Shown: positions 11,024-60,861, counted from the stretch's first letter. The stretch is DNA of 64,000 nt from an uncultured Candidatus Binatia bacterium (GCA_965214605.1 OZ243961.1:3168001-3232000); one strand, 5' to 3'. Numbers and translations are program-made. The notes: a model not told the origin generated them from the letters alone.

Positions 11024-12244
11024 ATGCAAAAGCCGATTTATATGGATAATCAGGCCACCACCCCAATGGATCCACGGGTGTTAGAGGCCATGCTGCCGTA
11101 TTTTCATGAGCATTTTGGCAATGCTGCCAGCCGCAACCATCCCTTTGGTTGGGCGGCCGAAGAGGCGGTTGATACCGCCCGCGGCCAGATTGCCCAGACC
11201 ATCGGTGCCAGGCCCAAGGAGATCATCTTTACCAGCGGGGCGACAGAGTCCGACAATCTGGCCATCAAAGGGGTGGCCGAGTTCTATAAAGAGAAGGGCA
11301 ACCACATCATCACGTCTGTGACCGAACACAAGGCGGTGCTTGACTCCTGCAAAGCTCTAGAACGGGCCGGGAAGGCCGAGGTGACCTATCTGCCGGTCGA
11401 CACATACGGCATGGTCAATCCGGACGACGTCGAAAACGCCATCACCGAGAAAACGGTGCTCATCTCCATTATGGCCGCGAACAACGAAATCGGCACCCTG
11501 CATCCGATTCGTGAGATTGGCAAGATTGCAAAAGACCGCGGGGTGCTCTTCCACTGCGACGCGACCCAGGGCGTGGGCAAAATCCCTATCAATGTTGAGC
11601 AGGATGGCATCGACCTGTTGGCTCTGAGCGCCCATAAGATGTATGGCCCCAAGGGCTGCGGTGCCCTCTATGTGCGGGCCAGAGGTCCGCGGGTGCGGCT
11701 CACCCCGATCATCGACGGCGGGGGACACGAACGGGGCATGCGGTCCGGCACTCTGAACGTGCCCGGCATCGTCGGCCTTGGCAAGGCCTGCCAGCTCGCC
11801 AGCCACGAGTTAGAGACCGAAGCGGCCAAACTGATCGGTCTGCGTACCCGCCTGCACGACGGTATCACCCGAGAGCTCGAAGAAGTCTACCTGAACGGAC
11901 ATCCGACCCAGCGCCTTCCCGGCAACCTCAACCTGAGCTTTGCCTATGTAGAGGGCGAATCGCTGCTGATGGGTATTAACAAGGACGTGGCGTTGTCCTC
12001 CGGGTCGGCCTGTACCTCGGCCACCTTAGAGCCCTCCTATGTGTTGAAAGCCCTGGGGGTGGGAGAAGAGTTGGCCCATACCTCGATTCGGTTCGGACTC
12101 GGTCGCTTCAATACTGAGGCAGAGGTCGATACCGTTGTCAAACGTATCGTTGAGGTTGTGCAGCGGCTGCGCGATCTGTCGCCACTGTATGAGATGGCCA
12201 AAGAGGGGATTGATCTCAAATCTGTGCAGTGGAAGACCGCCTAA
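11024..12244 (+). CDS. iscS: Cysteine desulfurase IscS
   Basis: 'YMDNQATTP', 'FTSGATES', PLP-Lys '[10 protein letters not shown]', '[17 protein letters not shown]', C-terminal 'SPLYEM..EGIDL..VQW'; ATG 11024 after GAGGA. Confidence 0.97.
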
Positions 12245-50615: not shown

Positions 50616-51203
50616 TTACACCGAGGTGCTGGGTCGGGCTTTCATCGCCTCGTACCAGCGCGGCAAATTGGTCCAGGCCGGGTCAAGCCTGAACCCGCCT
50701 GTGTAGCGGCTGCTATGGGCGGTCTCAAGACCGATAAATAGCATGATATCGGCAATCGAGAATGCTCCGGCCAGCCACTCTTTGCCCGCTAAGCCGTCGT
50801 TGATAAGCGGCAAACGAGACATCAACACACCTTTGGCGTGATCTGAGACCTCACCTTTGGACAGCACCATACGCGAGGCGGTGAGATACACCCCAATTTC
50901 ACACCGACGCTCCCAGGCCCGAACCTGAGCGCGGCTGACCGCATCGGTGCCAATGAGGGGTGGGTCGGGATAGAGTTCCTCGAGGTATTCCATGATCGGG
51001 AGGGTCTCTGCCAACACGGTTCCGTCGTCGAGTTCCAGGATGGGCACTCCGGCAAACGGATTCTTGGCCAGGAACTCGGGGGCTTTTTGCTCGCCCGCAT
51101 ACAAATCCAACTCTTTGATCGGAAGGTCGAGTTTCTTTTCGGCCAGATAGATGCGGACTTTTCGTGGGTTGGGGGCACGCTTTGTATCAAGATAGAGTAG
51201 CAT
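50616..51203 (-). CDS. Glutathione S-transferase family protein
   Basis: 'APNPRKVRIYLAEK', 'NPFAGVPILELDDG', 'SIADI'; start at ATG 51203. Confidence 0.9.
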   Translation of the reverse strand: MLLYLDTKRAPNPRKVRIYLAEKKLDLPIKELDLYAGEQKAPEFLAKNPFAGVPILELDDGTVLAETLPIMEYLEELYPDPPLIGTDAVSRAQVRAWERRCEIGVYLTASRMVLSKGEVSDHAKGVLMSRLPLINDGLAGKEWLAGAFSIADIMLFIGLETAHSSRYTGGFRLDPAWTNLPRWYEAMKARPSTSV

Positions 51204-51262
51204 GGGCCAGTCCTCTCTGTGGAGTATTTTGGGGCTGAATAGTGTAATTTTCGTCACTCCCA

Positions 51263-51306
51263 TTGTGTATTGCAATAGTTGACACAAGCTGGGCAATCAA
51301 TAGAAT
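51263..51306 (+). promoter_or_regulatory. Sigma70 promoter of the ATP-grasp/egt operon with dyad operator
   Basis: TTGACA (51279-84)-16nt-TAGAAT (51301-06); palindrome TATTGCAATA (51268-77) and TTGTGT..ACACAA dyad overlapping the -35 box. Confidence 0.6.
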
Positions 51307-51370: not shown

Positions 51371-52576
51371 ATGGAGGTATTCATCACCTGTCCCTCACAG
51401 AGAGACCGAGACGCTATTACTGATCTCAGCGACCATAACTTCCACCTACTCGACGCGCCGCTCAACCCCCGTACCCCTTCGCCCGAGCTTGATCTGCTGG
51501 CCTATATTGATCAGTGCCGGGATTACATTCGCACGCATCATATCGACGCTATTTTTTACTCGCGGGATGTGGCCGATTTGGTCGCTGCCGCCCTGTGTGA
51601 GGAGTTTGGCTTTCCCGGTCCGAGTGTAGAGTCGGTCTTTCTGTGCCTGCACAAATATTATGGTCGCCGAGCCGAGCCCAACCCGATCCGTTGTCAGGCC
51701 ATTGACCTACACGACCCAGACCCCTCGGTCGCGGTCTACCCGTGCTACCTCAAACCGCCGTGGCTGAATCTGGGTATTCTAGGATTTAAGCTCGAATCCG
51801 CGGCCGACCTCGACCGGGCACTGCGGATTGCGCGCCGAGAGTATCCGGCCTGGTCGCCGCTCTACACGCCGTTTTTCGAGCGTTATGTTGATCTCGAAAA
51901 ATATCCCCTGGCCGTCCGAGATATGATGTTGGTCGAAGAGTTTGTTGACGGTCCTCAGGTGACGGTCGAGGGTTGGGTATACGATCAACAGCCCCACTTG
52001 TGGGCAATTACCGATACCAACACGTATCCTGGAACGCGGGTGATCGATAATTTTTCCCTGCCCTCGCGTCATCCCGCCCATATTCAAGCCGAACTTAAGC
52101 GGCAGGCATGTGCTGCGATTGGCAGCGTGGGCCTGGACAACGGATTTTTTAACATTGAGTTCTGGTGTCACAACGACGGGGTGACCCTGACCGAGGTCAA
52201 CGGCCGAGCTGCAACCTGTTTTTACCGTTTGTACCGCACGTGTTTGGATGCCTGTATTTATGAGGCCGGTCTGACTCTGGCCAGTGGCCAGCCGCCCCGC
52301 CTGAACACAGCGTGTCGCAATGTGGTCGGCGGCCAGTTCAACCTGATTACCTTTGCCGAGGATACGGCCGAAAATCTGCTTGACCACGAGCAGGCCCGTA
52401 CCATTCCCGGCATGACGATTTATTTTGAACCGGGCAGCCAGGTGAGACAGATGAGCGAGTTCGGTATTGTCCTGGGCCAGATTGATCTGTTTGGTGACAG
52501 CTACGAAGAGATTCACGCCCAAGCCGAAGCCATGCGGCGGCGGCTGCTCAAAAGACCCGAGATGTCACCGCGGTAA
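51371..52576 (+). CDS. ATP-grasp domain ligase (amino-acid ligase-like)
   Basis: 'HKYY', 'YPCYLKP', 'MLVEEFVDG..VTVEG', 'GFFNIEF', 'EVNGR'; GGAGG RBS, ATG 51371. Confidence 0.88.
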   Translation: MEVFITCPSQRDRDAITDLSDHNFHLLDAPLNPRTPSPELDLLAYIDQCRDYIRTHHIDAIFYSRDVADLVAAALCEEFGFPGPSVESVFLCLHKYYGRRAEPNPIRCQAIDLHDPDPSVAVYPCYLKPPWLNLGILGFKLESAADLDRALRIARREYPAWSPLYTPFFERYVDLEKYPLAVRDMMLVEEFVDGPQVTVEGWVYDQQPHLWAITDTNTYPGTRVIDNFSLPSRHPAHIQAELKRQACAAIGSVGLDNGFFNIEFWCHNDGVTLTEVNGRAATCFYRLYRTCLDACIYEAGLTLASGQPPRLNTACRNVVGGQFNLITFAEDTAENLLDHEQARTIPGMTIYFEPGSQVRQMSEFGIVLGQIDLFGDSYEEIHAQAEAMRRRLLKRPEMSPR

Positions 52577-52578
52577 AC

Positions 52579-53409
52579 ATGTGTCGCTTGATTACCTACC
52601 TCGGGCCCGAGATTCGGCTTGAACGCGTTGTGAGCGAACCAGAGCACTCGCTGGTGGTACAGAGCTACCGGCCGCAGGAGATGACGGCTGGGGTGGTCAA
52701 CGCCGACGGCTTTGGCTTGGGGTGGTACAACCCACAGCTTGAGCCAACGCCGTGTGTGTATACCAATACCTGTCCCATCTGGAGCGATCGCAATTTGCCC
52801 GGACTAGGCCACCACATTGCGGCCGGGTGTATTTTTGCCAACGTGCGCAGTGCCACCCCGGGTCAGGCGGTGGACCACAGCAATTGCCAGCCGTTTGCCT
52901 ACCAACGTCTGCTGTTTATGCATAACGGCTTTATTGAGAACTTCCGTCACACTCTGATGCGGCCAATTCGAGATGCCCTGCAGGACACGTATTACACCGC
53001 TATCCAGGGTTCGACCGACTCGGAACATATCTTTGCCCTGCTACTCCAGTTTTTGCACGGCCGCGAGTGCACCCAACACAATGTGCTCCTCGCGATGCGG
53101 GCCGCAATCGAACAGCTCGGCCGCTGGGCGGCACCAGCCCGCACGCCGCTGGTCCTCAATCTGGCGCTGACAAACGGCGAGTTTGTCGTTGCCAGCCGTT
53201 TTGCCTCAAGCTCTCCGGCGCCCTCTTTGTACTACGCGTGCGATACCGCCGAATTTCCCCGGGCCGGCCTGCTCGCCTCGGAGCGTCTGTTTGCCAGCCG
53301 GGCGTGGCACGTGGTGGAGGAAGATCGGCTGATCGCTTTTGATGCCCGGCTTCGGCCGGACTGTGTCACGCTCCAGCCGGGAGGGGAGACGACTCGTGCC
53401 TCAGGCTAA
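52579..53409 (+). CDS. egtC: Ergothioneine biosynthesis Ntn-hydrolase EgtC
   Basis: N-terminal 'MCR' nucleophile, 'HSL.VQSY.P.EM..G.VNADGFG.GWY', 'VRSAT', 'HNG', 'TDSE'; adjacent to egtB. Confidence 0.9.
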   Translation: MCRLITYLGPEIRLERVVSEPEHSLVVQSYRPQEMTAGVVNADGFGLGWYNPQLEPTPCVYTNTCPIWSDRNLPGLGHHIAAGCIFANVRSATPGQAVDHSNCQPFAYQRLLFMHNGFIENFRHTLMRPIRDALQDTYYTAIQGSTDSEHIFALLLQFLHGRECTQHNVLLAMRAAIEQLGRWAAPARTPLVLNLALTNGEFVVASRFASSSPAPSLYYACDTAEFPRAGLLASERLFASRAWHVVEEDRLIAFDARLRPDCVTLQPGGETTRASG

Positions 53410-54721
53410 TTCCCATCCCACCCCGTCCCAGCCAGACCGTCTGCTTTTACGCGCCCGGTTTCTTGAGTCGCGCCGCCAGACACTCGGCCTGTTTGCCGAC
53501 GTCAGCGAGGCCGACTTCCGGCGTCAGGCGCATCCCGACTTTAGCCCGGTAGGTTGGCACCTGGGTCATATCGGGGTAACCGAAGAGTACTGGGTCTTAC
53601 AGCGGTGCGAAGGCCAGGGCTGCCTGTCCGAAGACTACGAGCGGTTTTTTTCGCCGACCGAGAATCCGAAAACGAATCGAATCCATCTCCCCAACCGCTC
53701 CGACATCCTGGCCTATCTCGACACAGTCCGGGAAAAAACGTTGGCTGTCCTCGACCGAACCGACTTTCCCCAGTCCCACTCGCTTTTGCAGCAAGCGCGG
53801 ATCTTTCACATGCTGCTCCAGCATGAAGCCCAGCATCAGGAAACCATTACCCTGGTGCTTCAGCTGTTGGCTGCCAGCCAGGACCAGCCGGACCGGTACT
53901 GTGAACCGAGAGGGAACGAGGGTGAAGACGGTCTGACTGACAAGATGGTACACGTCCCGGCTGGTCCTTTTCTGATGGGTAGTAATAGGCTGGATGAGAC
54001 GCTGGACAACGAGCGCCCACAGCACGAGGTGGATGTTGGCGAGTTTTGGATAGATCGCTATCCGGTGACCAACGCCCAGTTTCTGCACTTTGTCCAGGAC
54101 CGTGGCTACCGCCGGCGGGTTTGGTGGAGCGCTGAGGGCTGGGCGTGGCGGGAGAAAAACGCGATCGAACACCCCCGCTACTGGCGCCGGCAGCGGAATG
54201 GCGAGTGGGCCCTGCTCGGCCTGTCACCTTCCCGGACCCTTGCCCCTGATCATCCGGTGATGGGGGTCAGCTGGTATGAGGCTGAGGCGTATGCCCGAGC
54301 GGCGGGCAAGCGTCTGCCGACCGAGGCTGAGTGGGAAAAGGCGGCGTCCTGGGACCCGGAGCGTGGCCACAAGCGAGCCTATCCCTGGGGGGCCGCTCAA
54401 CCCAATCCACAGCACTGCAATAGCGACGCACGCCAGGACGGGACGAGCCCGGTTCAGTACCATCAGGCTGGTGCCAGCGCCTATGGCTGTCTGGATATGC
54501 AGGGCAACGTGTGGGAGTGGACCGCAACCTGCTTTCAACCCTATCCGGATTTTCGCGCCTATCCCTACGACGGCTATTCGGTACCATATTTCGACCATCA
54601 ACATCGGGTCTTGCGGGGCGGCTCGTGGGCGACACGGAGCTCTGTCCTGCGACCGACCTTTCGCAACTGGTATCACCCCTGGATCCGAGAAATCTTTGCC
54701 GGTTTTCGGTGCGTAACATAG
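53396..54721 (+). CDS. egtB: 5-histidylcysteine sulfoxide synthase EgtB-like (DinB + FGE-sulfatase domains)
   Basis: 'SPVGWHLGH', Fe ligands 'HEAQHQE', 'DNERPQH', 'RLPTEAEWEKAA', 'GNVWEW', 'YSVPYF', 'RNWY..IFAGFRC'; GTG start 53396. Confidence 0.88.
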   Translation: MPQANSHPTPSQPDRLLLRARFLESRRQTLGLFADVSEADFRRQAHPDFSPVGWHLGHIGVTEEYWVLQRCEGQGCLSEDYERFFSPTENPKTNRIHLPNRSDILAYLDTVREKTLAVLDRTDFPQSHSLLQQARIFHMLLQHEAQHQETITLVLQLLAASQDQPDRYCEPRGNEGEDGLTDKMVHVPAGPFLMGSNRLDETLDNERPQHEVDVGEFWIDRYPVTNAQFLHFVQDRGYRRRVWWSAEGWAWREKNAIEHPRYWRRQRNGEWALLGLSPSRTLAPDHPVMGVSWYEAEAYARAAGKRLPTEAEWEKAASWDPERGHKRAYPWGAAQPNPQHCNSDARQDGTSPVQYHQAGASAYGCLDMQGNVWEWTATCFQPYPDFRAYPYDGYSVPYFDHQHRVLRGGSWATRSSVLRPTFRNWYHPWIREIFAGFRCVT

Positions 54722-54735
54722 CTCCACAATACCTC

Positions 54736-55728
54736 ATGGATACCCCAACCACTGCTGATAATCGTCTCTATATCTCCTATCCGGTCTCTGCCCTGCCCCG
54801 CTTTCGCGAGGACGTGATCGCTGGGCTGAGTGCTACTCGAAAATCTCTTCCGCCGCGCTATTTTTATGATCGGTATGGCTCAGAGCTCTTTGAGCAGATC
54901 TGTCAACAACCCGAATATTATCCGACTCGGACCGAAGCCGTGCTGATGCGTCAGCGGGCTTCCGAGGTGCTCGACCTCGTCGGCCAGTGTACCCTGGTCG
55001 AACTCGGGAGCGGGAGCGCGGTCAAAACTCGCCTGCTCCTAGACGAGTACCGGCGTCGCGGCTACCCCATGCACTATGTTCCGATCGATATCAGCACCTC
55101 AATGTTACGCGAATCGGCCGAGAGGCTGATCGCCGACTATCCCGAGTTGTCTATCCAAGCCCTGGCCACCGACTATCTCAACGGCCTGGCCGCGCTCCCA
55201 TACGCCCGACAACGTTTGGTCCTGTTTTTGGGCAGCAATCTGGGCAATTTTGACGATGCTGAACAGGCCGAGCTGTTTGGCCGACTAGCGGCCGCGCTCC
55301 AGCCCCAGGATTATTTTCTGCTCGGCCTCGATCTCAGAAAGCCGGTCGATGTCCTAGAGGCCGCCTATAATGACGCGGCCGGAGTAACGGCCGCCTTTAA
55401 CCTCAATATGCTGCGCCGCATCAACCGCGAATTCGGCGCCAATTTCAATCTGTCGCAGTTTAACCACCTGGCCTTTTATAACCGCGCCGAGCACCAGATT
55501 GAAATGCACCTGCAGAGTCAGGTTGCCCAGGAGGTTGAGATTGCCGAGCTGGGCCTCCGGGTGTCCTTTGAGTCCCAAGAAACGATCCATACCGAGATCT
55601 CGCGCAAATTTGACGCCGACCAAGTGGCGGCTCAGCTCCGGTCGTACGGCTTTGATGCGTGTGCGCGATGGACGGATGAGCGTGGCTGGTTCTTAATGAC
55701 TATCTTTCGTTTTGTCGGAAGCCGATAA
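54736..55728 (+). CDS. egtD: L-histidine N(alpha)-methyltransferase EgtD
   Basis: 'KSLPPRYFYD..GSELFEQIC..PEYYPTRTE', 'ELGSGS..KT', 'FLGSNLGNF', 'AYNDAAGVTAAFNLN', 'IHTEISRKF'. Confidence 0.93.
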   Translation: MDTPTTADNRLYISYPVSALPRFREDVIAGLSATRKSLPPRYFYDRYGSELFEQICQQPEYYPTRTEAVLMRQRASEVLDLVGQCTLVELGSGSAVKTRLLLDEYRRRGYPMHYVPIDISTSMLRESAERLIADYPELSIQALATDYLNGLAALPYARQRLVLFLGSNLGNFDDAEQAELFGRLAAALQPQDYFLLGLDLRKPVDVLEAAYNDAAGVTAAFNLNMLRRINREFGANFNLSQFNHLAFYNRAEHQIEMHLQSQVAQEVEIAELGLRVSFESQETIHTEISRKFDADQVAAQLRSYGFDACARWTDERGWFLMTIFRFVGSR

Positions 55729-55751
55729 AAGGAGAACGGTGCTCTCTTGTC

Positions 55752-56777
55752 ATGCGAGGGACCACAAAAAAGCCCCGACTCGTCCTGATTGCGGCCAGTG
55801 GGACGATCAGCATGCACAGAGGGGGGGACGCTGATGGCCACGAGTTCAACTCCTCGTCCACCACTGGCCAGAACATATCGACCTGGACGGCTGCCGACCT
55901 GCTGGCCCAAACCTCACTCCGAGGCCAGTTACGCGTACGCCCCATTGACTTTGTGCCACCGGGCGGTGTCTATCCCGACAACGTCCTAGCCCTGGCCCGT
56001 CGGATTCGGACCGCGGCGACGCCGTCCATTGACGGCATTGTTGTCAGCCACGGCACTGACGCCATGGAGGAGGCCGCCTACGGCGTGGACGAACTCGTGT
56101 CCGTCCCGGTCCCGATTGTCTTCACCGGCGCCATGCGACCCGGCTGGGCCAGCGGCTATGACGGGATTCGGAATCTCGACAACGCGCTGCGGATCGCTAG
56201 CCTGATCCCGCCCGCCTATGGTACCCTGGTCACCCTCAACGATCAGATCTTTGAGGCTTGGAGTGTGTCTAAAGCCGACACCGGGGCCTTGGACGCCTTC
56301 AGCGCGCGCCGGGGGGCGCCGTTTGGGCAGATTGTTGGGGATCAGGTCGAGTGTACCTGGCGGCCGGTCACTCGGCCACGTCTGGGCCGGATTCCAAGAG
56401 ACGTCCCCACCTCGGTACCGATTCTGACCATGGGGTTGGCCGAAGACGCGGCAGTGCTCGACGGTCTGGCCGCGGGCCAGATACAGGGGCTGGTCATTGC
56501 TGGCATGGCGACTGGTACGATTCCTGCCCGGGCCTACGAAAAAGTACTCCGGCTGGCTAAAAGCGGCCTGCCGGTTGTCCTGTGCTCAAGCGCCGCCAGC
56601 GGTTGGACCGCGGCTGAGTATTACTATCCCCATGCCTACGATACCCTGCGGGCGGCCGGGGTGCTGATTGAGGACCATTTGTCCGCCCGGAAAACCCGTC
56701 TGCGTCTGATGCTGTGCCTAGGCCTCGGCGTGCCGTATGTGCCATTTGGCCACGAGTTTGTTATCAGGGCGGAATGA
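55752..56777 (+). CDS. Asparaginase/glutaminase-fold amidohydrolase (divergent)
   Basis: 'SGTIS', 'HGTDAMEE', 'TGAMRP', 'DG..NL', 'SKADT', 'KTRLRLML'. Confidence 0.85.
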   Translation: MRGTTKKPRLVLIAASGTISMHRGGDADGHEFNSSSTTGQNISTWTAADLLAQTSLRGQLRVRPIDFVPPGGVYPDNVLALARRIRTAATPSIDGIVVSHGTDAMEEAAYGVDELVSVPVPIVFTGAMRPGWASGYDGIRNLDNALRIASLIPPAYGTLVTLNDQIFEAWSVSKADTGALDAFSARRGAPFGQIVGDQVECTWRPVTRPRLGRIPRDVPTSVPILTMGLAEDAAVLDGLAAGQIQGLVIAGMATGTIPARAYEKVLRLAKSGLPVVLCSSAASGWTAAEYYYPHAYDTLRAAGVLIEDHLSARKTRLRLMLCLGLGVPYVPFGHEFVIRAE

Positions 56778-58051
56778 AGATGGCGGGTGCAGCTCCACGC
56801 AAGGGCAGGGCTGAGCCGTTTTTCTACGGCTGGTTTATTGTTGCTATCCTGTTTGTCGTTTCTATCATCGATGGTGGATTCACCTATATTTTTTCCGCCT
56901 TTCTCAAGCCTTTATCCGAAGAGTTCGGCTGGACCCGGGCGCAGACCTCGGGTGGCTTCTCCCTGTATCTGCTGGCGGCTGGTACGCTGCTGCCACTGTG
57001 GGGTTGGCTGGCTGACCGGGTCGGGGCACGTTTGGTTTTTCTGCTGAGTGCCCTGATTGATGGGATCGCACTGGTTCTGCTGAGCTATGTGCAAAGTCTG
57101 TTCGCGTTTTATTGCTTATATTTCTTTCTAGGCGCAGGACTGGCCGGGATTGCTCCGACTACGATTGGCAAGATCGTGTCCGAGTGGTTTGTGGCCAAAA
57201 GGGGGCGGGCCATGGGTATGGCCCTGGTCGGAGCCGGGGCGGGCGGGCTGGTACTGGTACCGGTGGCCGGATTTTTGATTGAGGAGTTTACCTGGCGGAT
57301 GGCCTATCGCTTGCTGGCCGCGCTGTCGCTGGGGGTGATGTTTCCCCTGGTGTTGTGCTTTCTGACCGATACGCCCCAGCAGAAAGGACTCTTGCCGCTC
57401 GGCCACGGCGGTCAGGTCGAACACGATGAGCCCGATCTGGTCCCGCCCGGCCAGCTCAACTGGACACTCGGCGCCGCGCTGCGAACGGCGACGTTTTGGT
57501 TGCTGAGCCTCGCCCTGTGCTGCGGGATTGGGGCGGCCATGTCGTTTAACGCCCATCAGGTCGCCCTGCTTCAGGACGCCGGCTTTTCGCTTGAGCTCGC
57601 CTCTTCGATTGCCGGCATTTCCCTGGGCATGAGCATGGGCGGGCGCTTTACGGTCGGCTGGATCAGCGAGTATCGGACTGACCCCCACACCTTGTTAGCC
57701 GTGTGTATGGGCGTACAGGCGATCGGGCTCGGCTTCCTCCTACTCATGCCTAGCCTCAGCAGCTGGGTGCTGCTCTTGGTCGTTCCGTTGTTTGGCCTGG
57801 GCTTCGGGGGTCTGGTCGTGCTGTGGCCCCTGACCATCGGCCATAACTTTGGGCTGAACGCTTTTGGTACGATTGGCGGAGTGATGGGGACGGTGGCAGT
57901 GAGTGTGATCGGAGCGGCGGGGCCGGTTGTGTTGGGCGCTCTCTATGACACAACCGGCAGTTATGACTGGGCGCTAGTGGTATGTATCGGAGTGTTGGTG
58001 ATAGGGGCGGGCGTAGCAAAGCTCACGCCCCTGCCACGCCCGTTTAGGTGA
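56774..58051 (+). CDS. MFS transporter (monocarboxylate/OFA-like)
   Basis: 'FYGW', about 12 TM helices, 'GWLADRVGAR', 'WFVAKRGRAMG', 'YDTTGSY'; ATGA overlap with upstream gene. Confidence 0.92.
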   Translation: MKMAGAAPRKGRAEPFFYGWFIVAILFVVSIIDGGFTYIFSAFLKPLSEEFGWTRAQTSGGFSLYLLAAGTLLPLWGWLADRVGARLVFLLSALIDGIALVLLSYVQSLFAFYCLYFFLGAGLAGIAPTTIGKIVSEWFVAKRGRAMGMALVGAGAGGLVLVPVAGFLIEEFTWRMAYRLLAALSLGVMFPLVLCFLTDTPQQKGLLPLGHGGQVEHDEPDLVPPGQLNWTLGAALRTATFWLLSLALCCGIGAAMSFNAHQVALLQDAGFSLELASSIAGISLGMSMGGRFTVGWISEYRTDPHTLLAVCMGVQAIGLGFLLLMPSLSSWVLLLVVPLFGLGFGGLVVLWPLTIGHNFGLNAFGTIGGVMGTVAVSVIGAAGPVVLGALYDTTGSYDWALVVCIGVLVIGAGVAKLTPLPRPFR

Positions 58052-58128: not shown

Positions 58129-59853
58129 TTAACCCCGACCGTGCCGCAACAGGCGACCCGGCGTGGCGTTTGTGCACTGGCCGTCCTCAAAGGTCACGTC
58201 GCCGTTAACCATAATCCAGCGATAACCGTCGGCCTTCTGGATCCGCCGCCACTCGCCACCTGGGAAGTCGTGCACGACCTCGGGTTTTTCAGGGGTAAGC
58301 TTGAGGTTTTCCAGATCGTACACCACGACGTCGGCCGAAGCGCCCGCGCGCAGGACGCCCCGATCCTGAAAGCCGGCACATTCGGCCGGCATCGCGCTCA
58401 GCCGATAGTGGGCCTCCTCAAGGCTCATAAAACCGGCATCGCGGACCATCCACGACAGCATATCGGTCGGATACGCGCCAATGGTGATGAACTTGGTGTG
58501 GGCACCGCCGTCCGACACCCCGGCCATGCTGTACGGGGAAGCCATCAGCTCGGCTGCATAGTCTTCGCGGACGTTGCGCGCCGGGGTGAGGAATTCGGTC
58601 TCTAGGTTATCCTCGACGGCAATATCGAACATTGCATCCATGGGATGCTTGTTTTCCATTTTGGCGACTTCTTCGACCGTCATTCCGACATATTTCTCGA
58701 ACTTCTTGTTGACGACGGATTCAATGGTGAACTCTTTGAAGGAGCCAGTGACAACCGGTGTGTGGCCGGTATCATACTCTGAGACCAGAGCCTGACGAAT
58801 GGCCGGGTTCTTGAGCTTTTCAAGCCGTTCGGCCGGGGTGCCAATGGTCACTTCACGTACGACATCATTCCCGTCAAAGAGTCCGGTGATTTCACCAAAA
58901 TTGAAGTACAAGCCCTGGCGCATTACCGCGGTCTGGTTATAGATCTTGCGGCCCGCTTTGTTGGTCTTTTCCATCCAGCGCAGAATACGGCGATGGATAC
59001 TAGGCCGGTCGTCACGTGTAGCGGTTGCATTGAACAAAATCGGTCGGCCAGACTCGTCGGCGAGACGGTCGTAGAACTTCATGTCTGCTTCAAAGTCCGG
59101 GCTGGCTTGGGTCAGCTGAATAAAGCCTTCTCCCCGCTCCTTTAACACCCGCCCAAAGATGAGCACATCTTCGTCCGCCATCGTGTCCGTTACCATCGGG
59201 GTGCCGTCGTAGTCGCGTTGGACAGACACAAAGCCGTCACCCAAGCGCTGAGCCGAGAATCCACAGCCCCCGGCATCCATTGATTCACTCAGAATCTGGC
59301 ACATGGTCTGTTTTTCTTTGTCGGTGGCCGGACGACTCTTTGCCGCCTCTAGACCCATAGTCCAGATCATAATCGGGGCAATAGGAACAAAGCTCAGGAC
59401 GTTGATCCCTTTGGGGGTCTGGTCAAGAAAGTCCAGCCATTCGGGAAAGGTCACCCAGTCCCACTTCATCCCGGCCTTCATCGACTCGAACGGAATGGCT
59501 TCAACCCGAGACATGGTCAACATGGCTCGCTCGCGCATCTCAGGCTTCACCGGGGCAAAACCAAAGCCACAGTTACCGACCACGATGGAGGTTACTCCGT
59601 GCCAGCCGGACAGCGTGACGTAGGGGTCCCAGTTAATCTGGGCGTCATAGTGGGTGTGGAGATCAATAAACCCCGGAGCAACGACGAGACCGTTGGCATC
59701 CAGGGTCTTTTGGGCATCGCTGGGTTTGAGCGTGCCGGGTTGTTCGATCTGCGCAATCTTACCGTCCTTGATCCCGATGTCTCCGATGTAACGGGGGTGA
59801 CGGGTGCCATCGACAATCGTACCACCTCGAATGAGCGTATCAAAAGTTGCCAT
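58129..59853 (-). CDS. N-acyl-D-amino-acid deacylase family amidohydrolase
   Basis: 'IRGGTIVDGT', 'APGFIDLHTHYD', 'GNCGFG', 'SDGGAH', 'PGRLLR'. Confidence 0.9.
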   Translation of the reverse strand: MATFDTLIRGGTIVDGTRHPRYIGDIGIKDGKIAQIEQPGTLKPSDAQKTLDANGLVVAPGFIDLHTHYDAQINWDPYVTLSGWHGVTSIVVGNCGFGFAPVKPEMRERAMLTMSRVEAIPFESMKAGMKWDWVTFPEWLDFLDQTPKGINVLSFVPIAPIMIWTMGLEAAKSRPATDKEKQTMCQILSESMDAGGCGFSAQRLGDGFVSVQRDYDGTPMVTDTMADEDVLIFGRVLKERGEGFIQLTQASPDFEADMKFYDRLADESGRPILFNATATRDDRPSIHRRILRWMEKTNKAGRKIYNQTAVMRQGLYFNFGEITGLFDGNDVVREVTIGTPAERLEKLKNPAIRQALVSEYDTGHTPVVTGSFKEFTIESVVNKKFEKYVGMTVEEVAKMENKHPMDAMFDIAVEDNLETEFLTPARNVREDYAAELMASPYSMAGVSDGGAHTKFITIGAYPTDMLSWMVRDAGFMSLEEAHYRLSAMPAECAGFQDRGVLRAGASADVVVYDLENLKLTPEKPEVVHDFPGGEWRRIQKADGYRWIMVNGDVTFEDGQCTNATPGRLLRHGRG

Positions 59854-60015: not shown

Positions 60016-60861
60016 ATGGATATCGGTATCACAATGTTTGCGACCGACTACGCAATGCGCCCGGACGATCTGGCCGTTGCCTGTGAGGAGCGTGGCTTTG
60101 AGTCGATCTGGTTTCCGGAACACACCCACATTCCGGCCAGCCGCCTCTCGCCCTGGCCGGGGGGAGCGGAGCTGCCCAAAGAGTACTGGCACACCCACGA
60201 CTTGTTTGTGTCGCTGATGGCGGCTGCCGGGGCCACCAAGAAGATCAAGATCGGAAGCGGTATCTGTCTGGTGATCGAGCGCGATCCAATCGTGTTGGCC
60301 AAGGAGGTGGCCACGGTCGATCAGCTGTCAAACGGCCGCCTACTCTTTGGTATTGGCGGAGGCTGGAACGCCGAGGAGATGGAGAACCACGGCACCCCGT
60401 TCAAACGCCGCTGGAAGGTCTTGCGTGAGCGGATTGAGGCGATGAAAGAGATCTGGGCGAACGATGAGGCCGAGTATCACGGGGAGTTCGTGAACTTTGA
60501 TAAAATCTGGTCCTATCCCAAACCGGCTCAGAAGCCCCATCCACCGATTCTGCTGGGGACTTTTAACGGTGGCCTAAAGCGCGTCGTCAACTACTGTGAC
60601 GGCTGGGTTCCGGTTGGTTTCGATACCAGCACGCTGCCCGAATCGATTAAAGAGCTGCGCGCTCTGGCCGAGCAGGCCGGCCGCTCGTCGGATGAGGTGC
60701 CGGTGTCGATTTTTGGTTCTTCGGATAAACAAGAAGCCCTGGCCAGCCATCAAGAGCTGGGGGTTGAGCGGGCAGTGCTGTTTCTGCCTTCGGCTGACAG
60801 AGACACGCTCATGCCCATGCTGGATAAATACGCAAGCCTGATCCCCAAGTTTGCGTCCTAG
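60016..60861 (+). CDS. LLM-class probable F420-dependent oxidoreductase (Rv2161c-like)
   Basis: 'GFESIWFPEHTHIP.SR', 'AKEVATVDQLSNGR..FGIGGGWNAEEM'. Confidence 0.88.
   Translation: MDIGITMFATDYAMRPDDLAVACEERGFESIWFPEHTHIPASRLSPWPGGAELPKEYWHTHDLFVSLMAAAGATKKIKIGSGICLVIERDPIVLAKEVATVDQLSNGRLLFGIGGGWNAEEMENHGTPFKRRWKVLRERIEAMKEIWANDEAEYHGEFVNFDKIWSYPKPAQKPHPPILLGTFNGGLKRVVNYCDGWVPVGFDTSTLPESIKELRALAEQAGRSSDEVPVSIFGSSDKQEALASHQELGVERAVLFLPSADRDTLMPMLDKYASLIPKFAS

Follow-up and report, generated by a model that had tools for sequence, protein, structure and literature searches.

A putative egtC-egtB-egtD operon between a glutathione S-transferase/ATP-grasp gene pair and a divergent asparaginase-family gene in one lineage of Candidatus Binatia

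Introduction

The mycobacterial egtABCDE operon, which is headed by egtA, is the reference for ergothioneine gene clusters. Here we describe a locus with a different set of genes, which lies in a 64,000-nucleotide stretch of DNA from an uncultured Candidatus Binatia bacterium (GCA_965214605.1, OZ243961.1:3168001-3232000; the whole stretch is called the window below) and combines egtC, egtB and egtD with genes for an ATP-grasp ligase, an asparaginase-family amidohydrolase and a transporter of the major facilitator superfamily (MFS). The EgtB, EgtC and EgtD homologues of the window pass the same NCBIfam models as their mycobacterial counterparts, but EgtA and EgtE are absent from the cluster, and the positions of Arg87, Asp416 and Arg420 in EgtB are taken by Lys, Tyr and Ile.

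Two further kinds of cluster come close to this layout. Cyanobacterial egtC-egtB-egtD loci, for instance in Acaryochloris marina, Nodularia, Anabaenopsis and Lyngbya, have the same order as the window and likewise lack egtA and egtE. They differ from it in that the asparaginase gene is absent from all 48 related loci that lack the ligase, and in that an ATP-grasp gene of the window's type is absent within 7 kb. The other kind joins a non-heme-iron sulfoxide synthase (NHISS) to an ATP-grasp ligase. About 100 such clusters in 16 subfamilies are described in the text of a recent paper (J Am Chem Soc 2026, PMC13674229), according to which the lyase is borrowed, the ligases are RimK-like except in subfamily 14, where they are YbdK-like, and the ash and tgi clusters give rise to actinothioneine and thioglutine. 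In the window, as in ash and tgi, a sulfoxide synthase gene lies close to an ATP-grasp ligase gene, and some of the published clusters also have an MFS gene. As far as the text of that paper allows comparison, however, ash and tgi use an OvoA-like NHISS that acts on histidine and a RimK-like ligase selective for 2-thiohistidine, and neither EgtD nor EgtC figures in the characterised pathways it sets out, whereas the window has an EgtB-type enzyme together with EgtD and EgtC, a ligase of the L-amino-acid ligase (Lal) fold and an asparaginase gene (PMC13674229). An earlier note on the window, made from the sequence alone, knew of no characterised egt cluster with this layout. As regards an ATP-grasp gene in such clusters, this has to be narrowed, as NHISS-ATP-grasp clusters have been characterised; what stands is that their enzyme set, as given in that text, is not that of the window (PMC13674229). 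Our literature search found nothing joining ergothioneine, egtC and asparaginase, and ergothioneine is mentioned in none of the Binatota/Binatia literature retrieved.

Results

Gene order at the locus and its conservation

In the window, a putative egtC-egtB-egtD operon is set between a conserved pair of genes, for a protein of the glutathione S-transferase (GST) family and for an ATP-grasp ligase, and a divergent gene of the asparaginase family. This is the property of one family-level lineage of Binatia. The features of the locus are the following.

50616-51296, minus strand: GST-family gene, divergently oriented (GST_N_2/GST_N_3/GST_N); its true start may lie further in
51279-51306, plus strand: promoter-like site TTGACA-16-TAGAAT upstream of the ATP-grasp gene, 11/12 matches to a sigma-70-like consensus
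51371-52576, plus strand: ATP-grasp ligase gene, 401 aa (PF13535)
52579-53409, plus strand: egtC, Ntn amidohydrolase of the class-II glutamine amidotransferase fold (TIGR03442)
53396-54721, plus strand: egtB, non-heme-iron sulfoxide synthase (TIGR03440); the frame is open from 53339
54736-55728, plus strand: egtD, histidine N-alpha-trimethyltransferase (TIGR03438)
55752-56777, plus strand: divergent asparaginase-family amidohydrolase gene, 341 aa (PF00710 and PF17763)
56774-58051, plus strand: MFS transporter gene of the lactate / oxalate-formate kind (MFS_1)

The earlier note had listed six close-packed genes on one strand, from the ATP-grasp gene to the MFS gene, with neither egtA nor egtE among them, and both points were confirmed, coordinates and spacings included. 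Only 2 nt separate the ATP-grasp gene from egtC, 14 nt egtB from egtD and 23 nt egtD from the asparaginase gene, while the asparaginase and MFS genes share the ATGA at 56774-56777. The overlap of egtC and egtB results from an in-frame GTG at 53396, which is preceded by the GGAGG-rich GGAGGGGAGA and is probably the start of egtB; the egtC stop codon lies at 53407-53409. The GST-family and ATP-grasp genes diverge from one shared intergenic region. Four promoter-like sites were counted in the region against 2.5 +/- 1.2 in shuffled sequences; its nine terminator-like sites are no excess over the shuffles (6.4 +/- 2.4).

The breadth of the arrangement was assessed in 43 Binatia-type loci, in which the ligase is 65-89% identical to that of the window. 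EgtC follows the ligase in 40 of these loci and the asparaginase gene is present in 36. Those that lack partners are contig ends (L014, L017, L038, L245, L247 and L252) and L221, which is identical with L013 and has ample flanking sequence without egt genes. By the ends of the high-scoring segment pairs, the median gap between ligase and EgtC amounts to ~38 nt (41 loci), and a GST gene with a median identity of 79% lies upstream of the ligase in 34 of 41 loci. The five-gene order is kept although the EgtB proteins are, at the median, just ~51% identical to that of the window. The ATP-grasp-egtC-egtB-egtD-asparaginase arrangement is not a product of chance. Outside the window, the MFS gene was found only in L012/L066/L220 and L065, and in the close relative L011, which lacks it, the next gene directly follows the asparaginase gene; the transporter is accessory and belongs to the window's genus. 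Co-occurrence of the added genes with egt genes in other genomes, as the earlier note envisaged it, is therefore real for the ATP-grasp and asparaginase genes but does not extend beyond the genus for the MFS gene.

The genes of the locus do not diverge at the same pace. Among the 41 loci with a ligase identity of 65-80%, the median identity to the window is 79% for the GST and 74% for the ligase, as compared with 58% for EgtC, 51% for EgtB, 62.5% for EgtD and 51% for the asparaginase-family protein. Within the class, the ligase was detected in 25 of 201 sampled genomes, namely the window's own genome, 23 of 24 genomes of family f1 and the single genome of family f76, but in none of the 175 genomes of 18 other families; in the sample of the phylum it occurs in 2 of 151 genomes. 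EgtD, by comparison, was found in 142 of the 201 genomes at E<=1e-20, a count that includes one genome flagged as unpublished (G334), and 117 of these belong to the 175 genomes of families without the ligase. Since EgtD is widespread in the class without the ligase, ergothioneine does not need this enzyme. A divergent GST and ligase pair also occurs in another order, in genome G001 (L013:8269-10206; G001:C1, ~4.04 Mb), 66% and 77% identical to the proteins of the window. It has no adjacent egt or asparaginase genes, and of the 53 genomes of that order G001 alone has the ligase. This occurrence suggests that the pair may have moved as a unit, by horizontal transfer.

Family and fold of the ATP-grasp ligase

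The ligase matches PF13535 (ATP-grasp_4) with 29.8-30.1 bits, just above the cut-off of 27, and LAL_C2 weakly; the RimK Pfam gave no match even at E<=10. An AlphaFold (AF2) model calculated from an alignment of 20 sequences reached a predicted local distance difference test score (pLDDT) of 92. Its closest structure is the L-amino-acid ligase BL00235 (3vot; template modelling (TM) score 0.75, Foldseek E 3e-21), followed by BacD/YwfE and RizA, and biotin carboxylases and PurK/PurT rank below these L-amino-acid ligases. The fold is alike, but the identity to BL00235, BacD/YwfE and RizA is just 12-16%. The best solved relative by sequence is 4dim, which is uncharacterised (E 2.5e-14), and a comparison of structure clusters returned ATP-grasp_4 clusters alone. 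Judged from its modelled fold, the gene product is of the L-amino-acid-ligase type and represents an uncharacterised family. The residues K128, E189, E275, N277 and R279, which we take to be the ATP/Mg residues of ATP-grasp enzymes, are invariant in the 20 sequences, and their retention would fit an active enzyme.

The ligase family is small and forms three clades. Nearly all relatives of the window's ligase come from metagenome-assembled genomes (MAGs) labelled Candidatus Binatia. In the Binatia-type clade the ligase gene adjoins the GST and egt genes. In the second clade, from Acidobacteriota/Thermoanaerobaculia (48-56% identity), genes for a PCO_ADO thiol dioxygenase and a 420-aa protein adjoin the ligase in 17 of 18 loci. 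The latter protein had no Pfam match and no usable structural match (all TM scores by query <= 0.31). The third clade, with an identity of 38-39%, comprises two loci, one of which is located behind genes of the PIG-L deacetylase, MFS and GNAT-like kinds while the other has no such neighbours. The recurring theme of the ligase neighbours is thiol chemistry. Chiefly in view of this indirect evidence, the thiol-handling neighbours in three clades, we propose that the substrate or product of the ligase would contain cysteine. The ligase is not tied to egt genes, as shown by the GST and ligase pair without egt genes in another order and the sister clade beside the thiol dioxygenase.

Two variations of these neighbourhoods were recorded. 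The trio of ligase, PCO_ADO and 420-aa protein (L043:9001-12026; also L045, L046, L048, L255-L267 and L271) is kept even in loci with an inverted orientation. In one Binatia genus (L015:7323-8940, L222-L244), a GFA-family gene on the minus strand and a 150-aa Cupin_7 gene on the plus strand are inserted between the GST and ligase genes, the Cupin_7 gene directly preceding the ligase; the window has neither. A relationship of the Cupin_7 protein to the PCO_ADO cupin was considered and discarded, as there is no significant similarity (E = 13).

The EgtC, EgtB and EgtD proteins and their cyanobacterial relatives

EgtC scored 273.2 bits against TIGR03442 (NCBIfam; cut-off 218.65) and starts with Met-Cys, as required for an N-terminal Cys amidohydrolase. 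Its best PDB match is 3mdn (E 1.6e-41), and EgtC of M. smegmatis (4zfk) is found at E 5e-17. EgtB contains DinB_2 (PF12867) and FGE-sulfatase (PF03781) domains, reaches 389.6 bits against TIGR03440 (cut-off 360) and has EgtB of M. thermoresistibile (4x8b, E 2.7e-92) as its best PDB match; with 178.6 against ovoA_Nterm (cut-off 400) it is not OvoA-like. EgtD attained 389 bits against TIGR03438 (cut-off 290.9) and 384.5 bits against PF10017. By these profile scores, all three are bona fide members of their families. A selenoneine pathway was considered as well and rejected, as EgtB lies above the cut-off of its own model and the SenA model gave 328.3, below its cut-off of 420; SenB and SenC were not searched for.

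When EgtB of the window is aligned to the M. thermoresistibile enzyme, Lys, Tyr and Ile appear in place of Arg87, Asp416 and Arg420 (numbering mapped with a one-residue offset and checked on His51 and Trp415). A role in substrate or thiol binding is given for these three residues in the parts of two reports that deal with them (PMC4768315; bioRxiv 10.1101/2022.04.13.486033), the second of which gives His and Phe/Tyr in place of Arg87 and Asp416 for SenA. All 29 Binatia-type EgtB rows have Lys, Tyr and Ile/Val/Met at these positions. However, the Lys/Tyr pocket is also found in 70 of 71 readable loci, cyanobacteria included (FRNWY), the exception being an actinobacterial locus with the canonical Asp. 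As cyanobacterial EgtBs without a ligase share the pocket, it does not track the ligase; on these alignments, the altered pocket characterises the cyanobacterial/Binatia EgtB lineage as a whole and is not specific to clusters with a ligase.

The tie to cyanobacteria emerged from a search seeded with Binatia EgtBs, which returned many named cyanobacteria besides Binatia. In the 48 related loci without the ligase, EgtC lies just upstream of EgtB in 40, EgtD is present in 35, and the asparaginase gene in 0. A maximum-likelihood tree of 43 EgtB rows, midpoint-rooted for drawing only, groups the 16 Binatia-type rows in one clade (support 94/89). Its sister comprises 26 rows (22 cyanobacterial and four MAG rows labelled 'uncultured bacterium'; support 100/99), and one actinobacterial row stands outside on a long branch. 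The egtCBD core of the window is, as far as sequence comparison goes, of the cyanobacterial kind. An egtC-egtB-egtD core without egtA and egtE is thus not as unusual as the earlier note had it, but a common cyanobacterial layout. According to a passage of a review, glutathione (GSH) itself and not gamma-Glu-Cys feeds ergothioneine synthesis in Synechocystis, and the absence of EgtE is likewise reported for cyanobacteria (PMC10295655). If GSH were the donor here too, a second trimming hydrolase would be needed; by this analogy, a second trimming step would be plausible.

Deviations from the separate and adjacent egt genes of the window were seen in a few genomes. In one MAG, an ATP-grasp-EgtC-EgtD-asparaginase locus (L053:311-4505) is devoid of EgtB, and a lone EgtB (58% identity) is encoded on another contig (L147:4419-5711). 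Several other families of the class have EgtD matches within open frames of 700-950 aa (e.g. G255:C13:148945-149847 and G303:C203:29778-30674), which suggests that EgtD is fused there, perhaps to EgtB, whereas the genes of the window are separate.

The asparaginase-family protein and the transporter

The asparaginase-family protein falls well below the cut-offs of both the type II model (TIGR00520; 130.7, cut-off 314.3) and the type I model (TIGR00519; 75.4, cut-off 260.5). The motifs GGT(I/V)S and HGTD and the lysine of (Y/F/S)K(A/S)D are kept in 26 of 26 rows, and the window's protein could be aligned at these sites to Erwinia asparaginase (1zcf). We assume that the GGT threonine is the asparaginase nucleophile and that Thr and Asp of HGTD together with the Lys are catalytic. 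The region IGSENM of 1zcf, presumably the Ser-Gln/Glu substrate-binding (Asn-binding) loop, is not kept; it reads PPGGVY in the window and varies between clades in the 26 rows. Judged from these motifs, the protein probably has amidohydrolase activity, directed at something other than free asparagine. The nearest relatives outside Binatia are only 34-37% identical. Of 80 loci with relatives of the protein, 76 have no egt genes nearby, and a second context for this subfamily is thus lacking.

Loss of the nucleophile was entertained and dismissed, since the variable Thr/Ala/Val position lies three residues before the invariant GGT threonine. At this position, the clade of the window, L011 and L012 has Ala, and most relatives have Thr. 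The proteins of the window and L011 also carry an insertion of 12-13 residues after GGTIS (window 55752-55900). The transporter scored 149 bits against MFS_1 and 169.1 against the SfMCT (lactate) model, the cut-off of which is 320.

Glutamate-cysteine ligase, GshB and EgtE candidates in the genomes

The only strong GCS2 protein of the window's genome is encoded ~87 kb past the end of the window. This protein is of the plant type (TIGR01436; 444.5, just below the cut-off of 463) and scored 157.8 against the EgtA model (cut-off 370.8). GshB is found elsewhere in the genome with 228.9 bits. Because the genome thus has its own Glu-Cys ligase and GshB, the ATP-grasp enzyme is not required as a replacement of EgtA, one of the two roles that the earlier note had weighed for it. 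The same applies more widely: G001 possesses GshA (485 bits) and GshB, and G002, G003 and G005 (Thermoanaerobaculia) have a GCS2-family ligase at ~210 bits, so that another Glu-Cys-ligase candidate is present in all five ligase-bearing genomes tested; GshB was not matched in the three Thermoanaerobaculia genomes checked. EgtD is above the cut-off in all four ligase-bearing genomes tested outside the lineage, at a distance from the ligase gene.

With the EgtE model, the highest score in the whole genome is 85.4 bits (cut-off 400). A class-V aminotransferase / cysteine-desulfurase-like gene within the window (11153-11728; G000:C1:3179153-3179728), ~40 kb upstream of the cluster, matches this model weakly (53.7 bits). 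It is possible that its product is a borrowed C-S lyase.

Discussion

The layout of the locus hints at an undescribed extra step. The explanation we put forward, tentatively and with somewhat less than an even chance, is ergothioneine synthesis with an added ligase/hydrolase step that acts on a cysteine-peptide donor. EgtD would turn histidine into hercynine, EgtB would join hercynine to a thiol of the gamma-glutamyl-cysteine type, and EgtC would take off the glutamyl group, leaving the C-S lyase step to an unlinked pyridoxal phosphate enzyme, as in cyanobacteria. The ATP-grasp enzyme, rather than being a needed EgtA substitute, would be a peptide ligase making a cysteine-containing peptide that is used as the sulfur donor or added to it, and of which the neighbouring GST might also make use. 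From the EgtB product, an extra amide-linked group would be removed by the asparaginase-like enzyme, and the MFS transporter, in the window's genus only, would move the product or a precursor. The added step is favoured by the conserved linkage of the ligase and asparaginase genes to egtCBD, the dipeptide-ligase fold, the thiol-handling neighbours of the ligase family, the altered donor pocket of EgtB, the Synechocystis analogy, and the retention of the catalytic motifs but not of the Asn-binding loop in the asparaginase-family protein. A more specific form of this scheme, in which the ligase makes a hitherto undescribed cysteine peptide thiol (Cys-X or gamma-Glu-Cys-X) that serves as donor for the Lys87/Tyr416-type EgtB and as co-substrate of the GST, and in which EgtC and the asparaginase-like enzyme trim successively, seems to us unlikely.

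Several observations weigh against the added step. EgtD is common in genomes of other families without the ligase (117/175), and the linkage comes from one lineage, the GTDB-type families f1 and f76, whose related genomes are not independent cases. The divergent GST and ligase pair of G001 does without adjacent egt or asparaginase genes. The two rate classes, with a slow ligase and GST on one side and fast asparaginase and egt genes on the other, look like two modules and not one. The Lys/Tyr pocket occurs equally in cyanobacterial EgtBs without a ligase, the substrates of the ligase would have to be deduced from its neighbours and its modelled fold only, and asparaginase-fold enzymes are, to our knowledge, known for side-chain amides and not for peptide bonds.

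Many of these facts would be expected if the genes were mere neighbours. The cell would then use its own gamma-Glu-Cys or glutathione to make plain ergothioneine, the ATP-grasp enzyme and the GST would have another thiol or peptide function, the asparaginase-like enzyme would belong to nitrogen or amide metabolism, and the order would be kept by descent within one family. Beyond the rate classes (GST 79% and ligase 74% versus EgtC 58, EgtB 51, EgtD 62.5 and asparaginase 51) and the lone GST and ligase pair of G001 in its other order, this is favoured by the cyanobacterial egtCBD loci without either extra gene (48 loci, none with the asparaginase gene), by the confinement of the ligase to f1 and f76 (25/201, against 142/201 for EgtD) and by the genome's own glutamate-cysteine ligase and GshB. 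Yet the same-strand order persists with short gaps in 40/43 (EgtC) and 36/43 (asparaginase) loci despite ~50% protein divergence, the window shows a 2-nt gap behind a single strong promoter-like site, and the asparaginase gene keeps pace with the egt genes in its divergence and lacks close relatives outside the egt context (next best 34-37%). On balance, we regard mere neighbourhood as rather unlikely, though a serious contender. A little less probable still than the specific donor scheme above is that the ATP-grasp enzyme is a dedicated gamma-glutamyl-cysteine ligase which replaces EgtA and feeds EgtB apart from the feedback-controlled glutathione pathway. The ATP-grasp gene does head the operon, the downstream EgtC implies a gamma-glutamyl donor, and GST neighbours fit glutathione-type chemistry. 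Against this, another Glu-Cys-ligase candidate is present in 5/5 ligase-bearing genomes, the fold is nearest to that of alpha-dipeptide ligases, EgtB has not retained Asp416 and Arg420, which are listed as substrate-binding in the mycobacterial enzyme, and both the asparaginase and the PCO_ADO partner would be left unexplained. On the favourable side, TgiB, as presented in the published text, is a precedent for an ATP-grasp enzyme forming a gamma-glutamyl bond (PMC13674229).

The same text supplies the model for another role, that of tailoring the thio-imidazole. The ligase would attach an amino acid or an amine to ergothioneine, hercynine or 2-thiohistidine, and the conjugate would be matured or recycled by the asparaginase-like enzyme and exported through the MFS transporter. 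NHISS and ATP-grasp clusters, some with an MFS gene, make Phe- or gamma-Glu-2-thiohistidine (PMC13674229). The dipeptide-forming fold of the ligase and the MFS gene of the window agree with such tailoring. However, with a strong EgtD the alpha-amine would be trimethylated and not acylable, so that only the carboxylate is free, and the ligase is also found far from any NHISS gene. Moreover, the published NHISS are, by that account, OvoA-like and histidine-using and their ligases nearly all RimK-like, whereas the window has an EgtB-type enzyme and no RimK match (PMC13674229). We hold this to be the most improbable of the explanations.

Ergothioneine and related compounds occur widely as redox metabolites, and the enzymes that tailor them or feed their synthesis are, according to the published account, only now emerging (PMC13674229). 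At the locus described here, a standard egtCBD core of an uncultured soil/sediment lineage is stably flanked by a ligase and an asparaginase-fold hydrolase with an altered loop. The ligase family is also tied to a bacterial thiol dioxygenase of the PCO/ADO type, and thiol enzymes are among its neighbours in three phyla. If the extra genes belong to the pathway, they would define either a novel sulfur donor or a novel product, and a first function could be assigned to the ligase family; should the cysteine-peptide thiol be the donor, ergothioneine or a related compound would be reached by a novel route, and the asparaginase fold would be put to a novel use. If they stand outside the pathway, the locus would be an example of how far a gene order retained in a single family may lead astray.

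Downstream of the cluster, the window encodes an Amidohydro_3 metallohydrolase (58129-59853, minus strand) and a luciferase-like monooxygenase (60016-60861, plus strand). Counterparts of both genes, with identities of 84-95%, are confined to the closest relatives of the window (L011 and L012).

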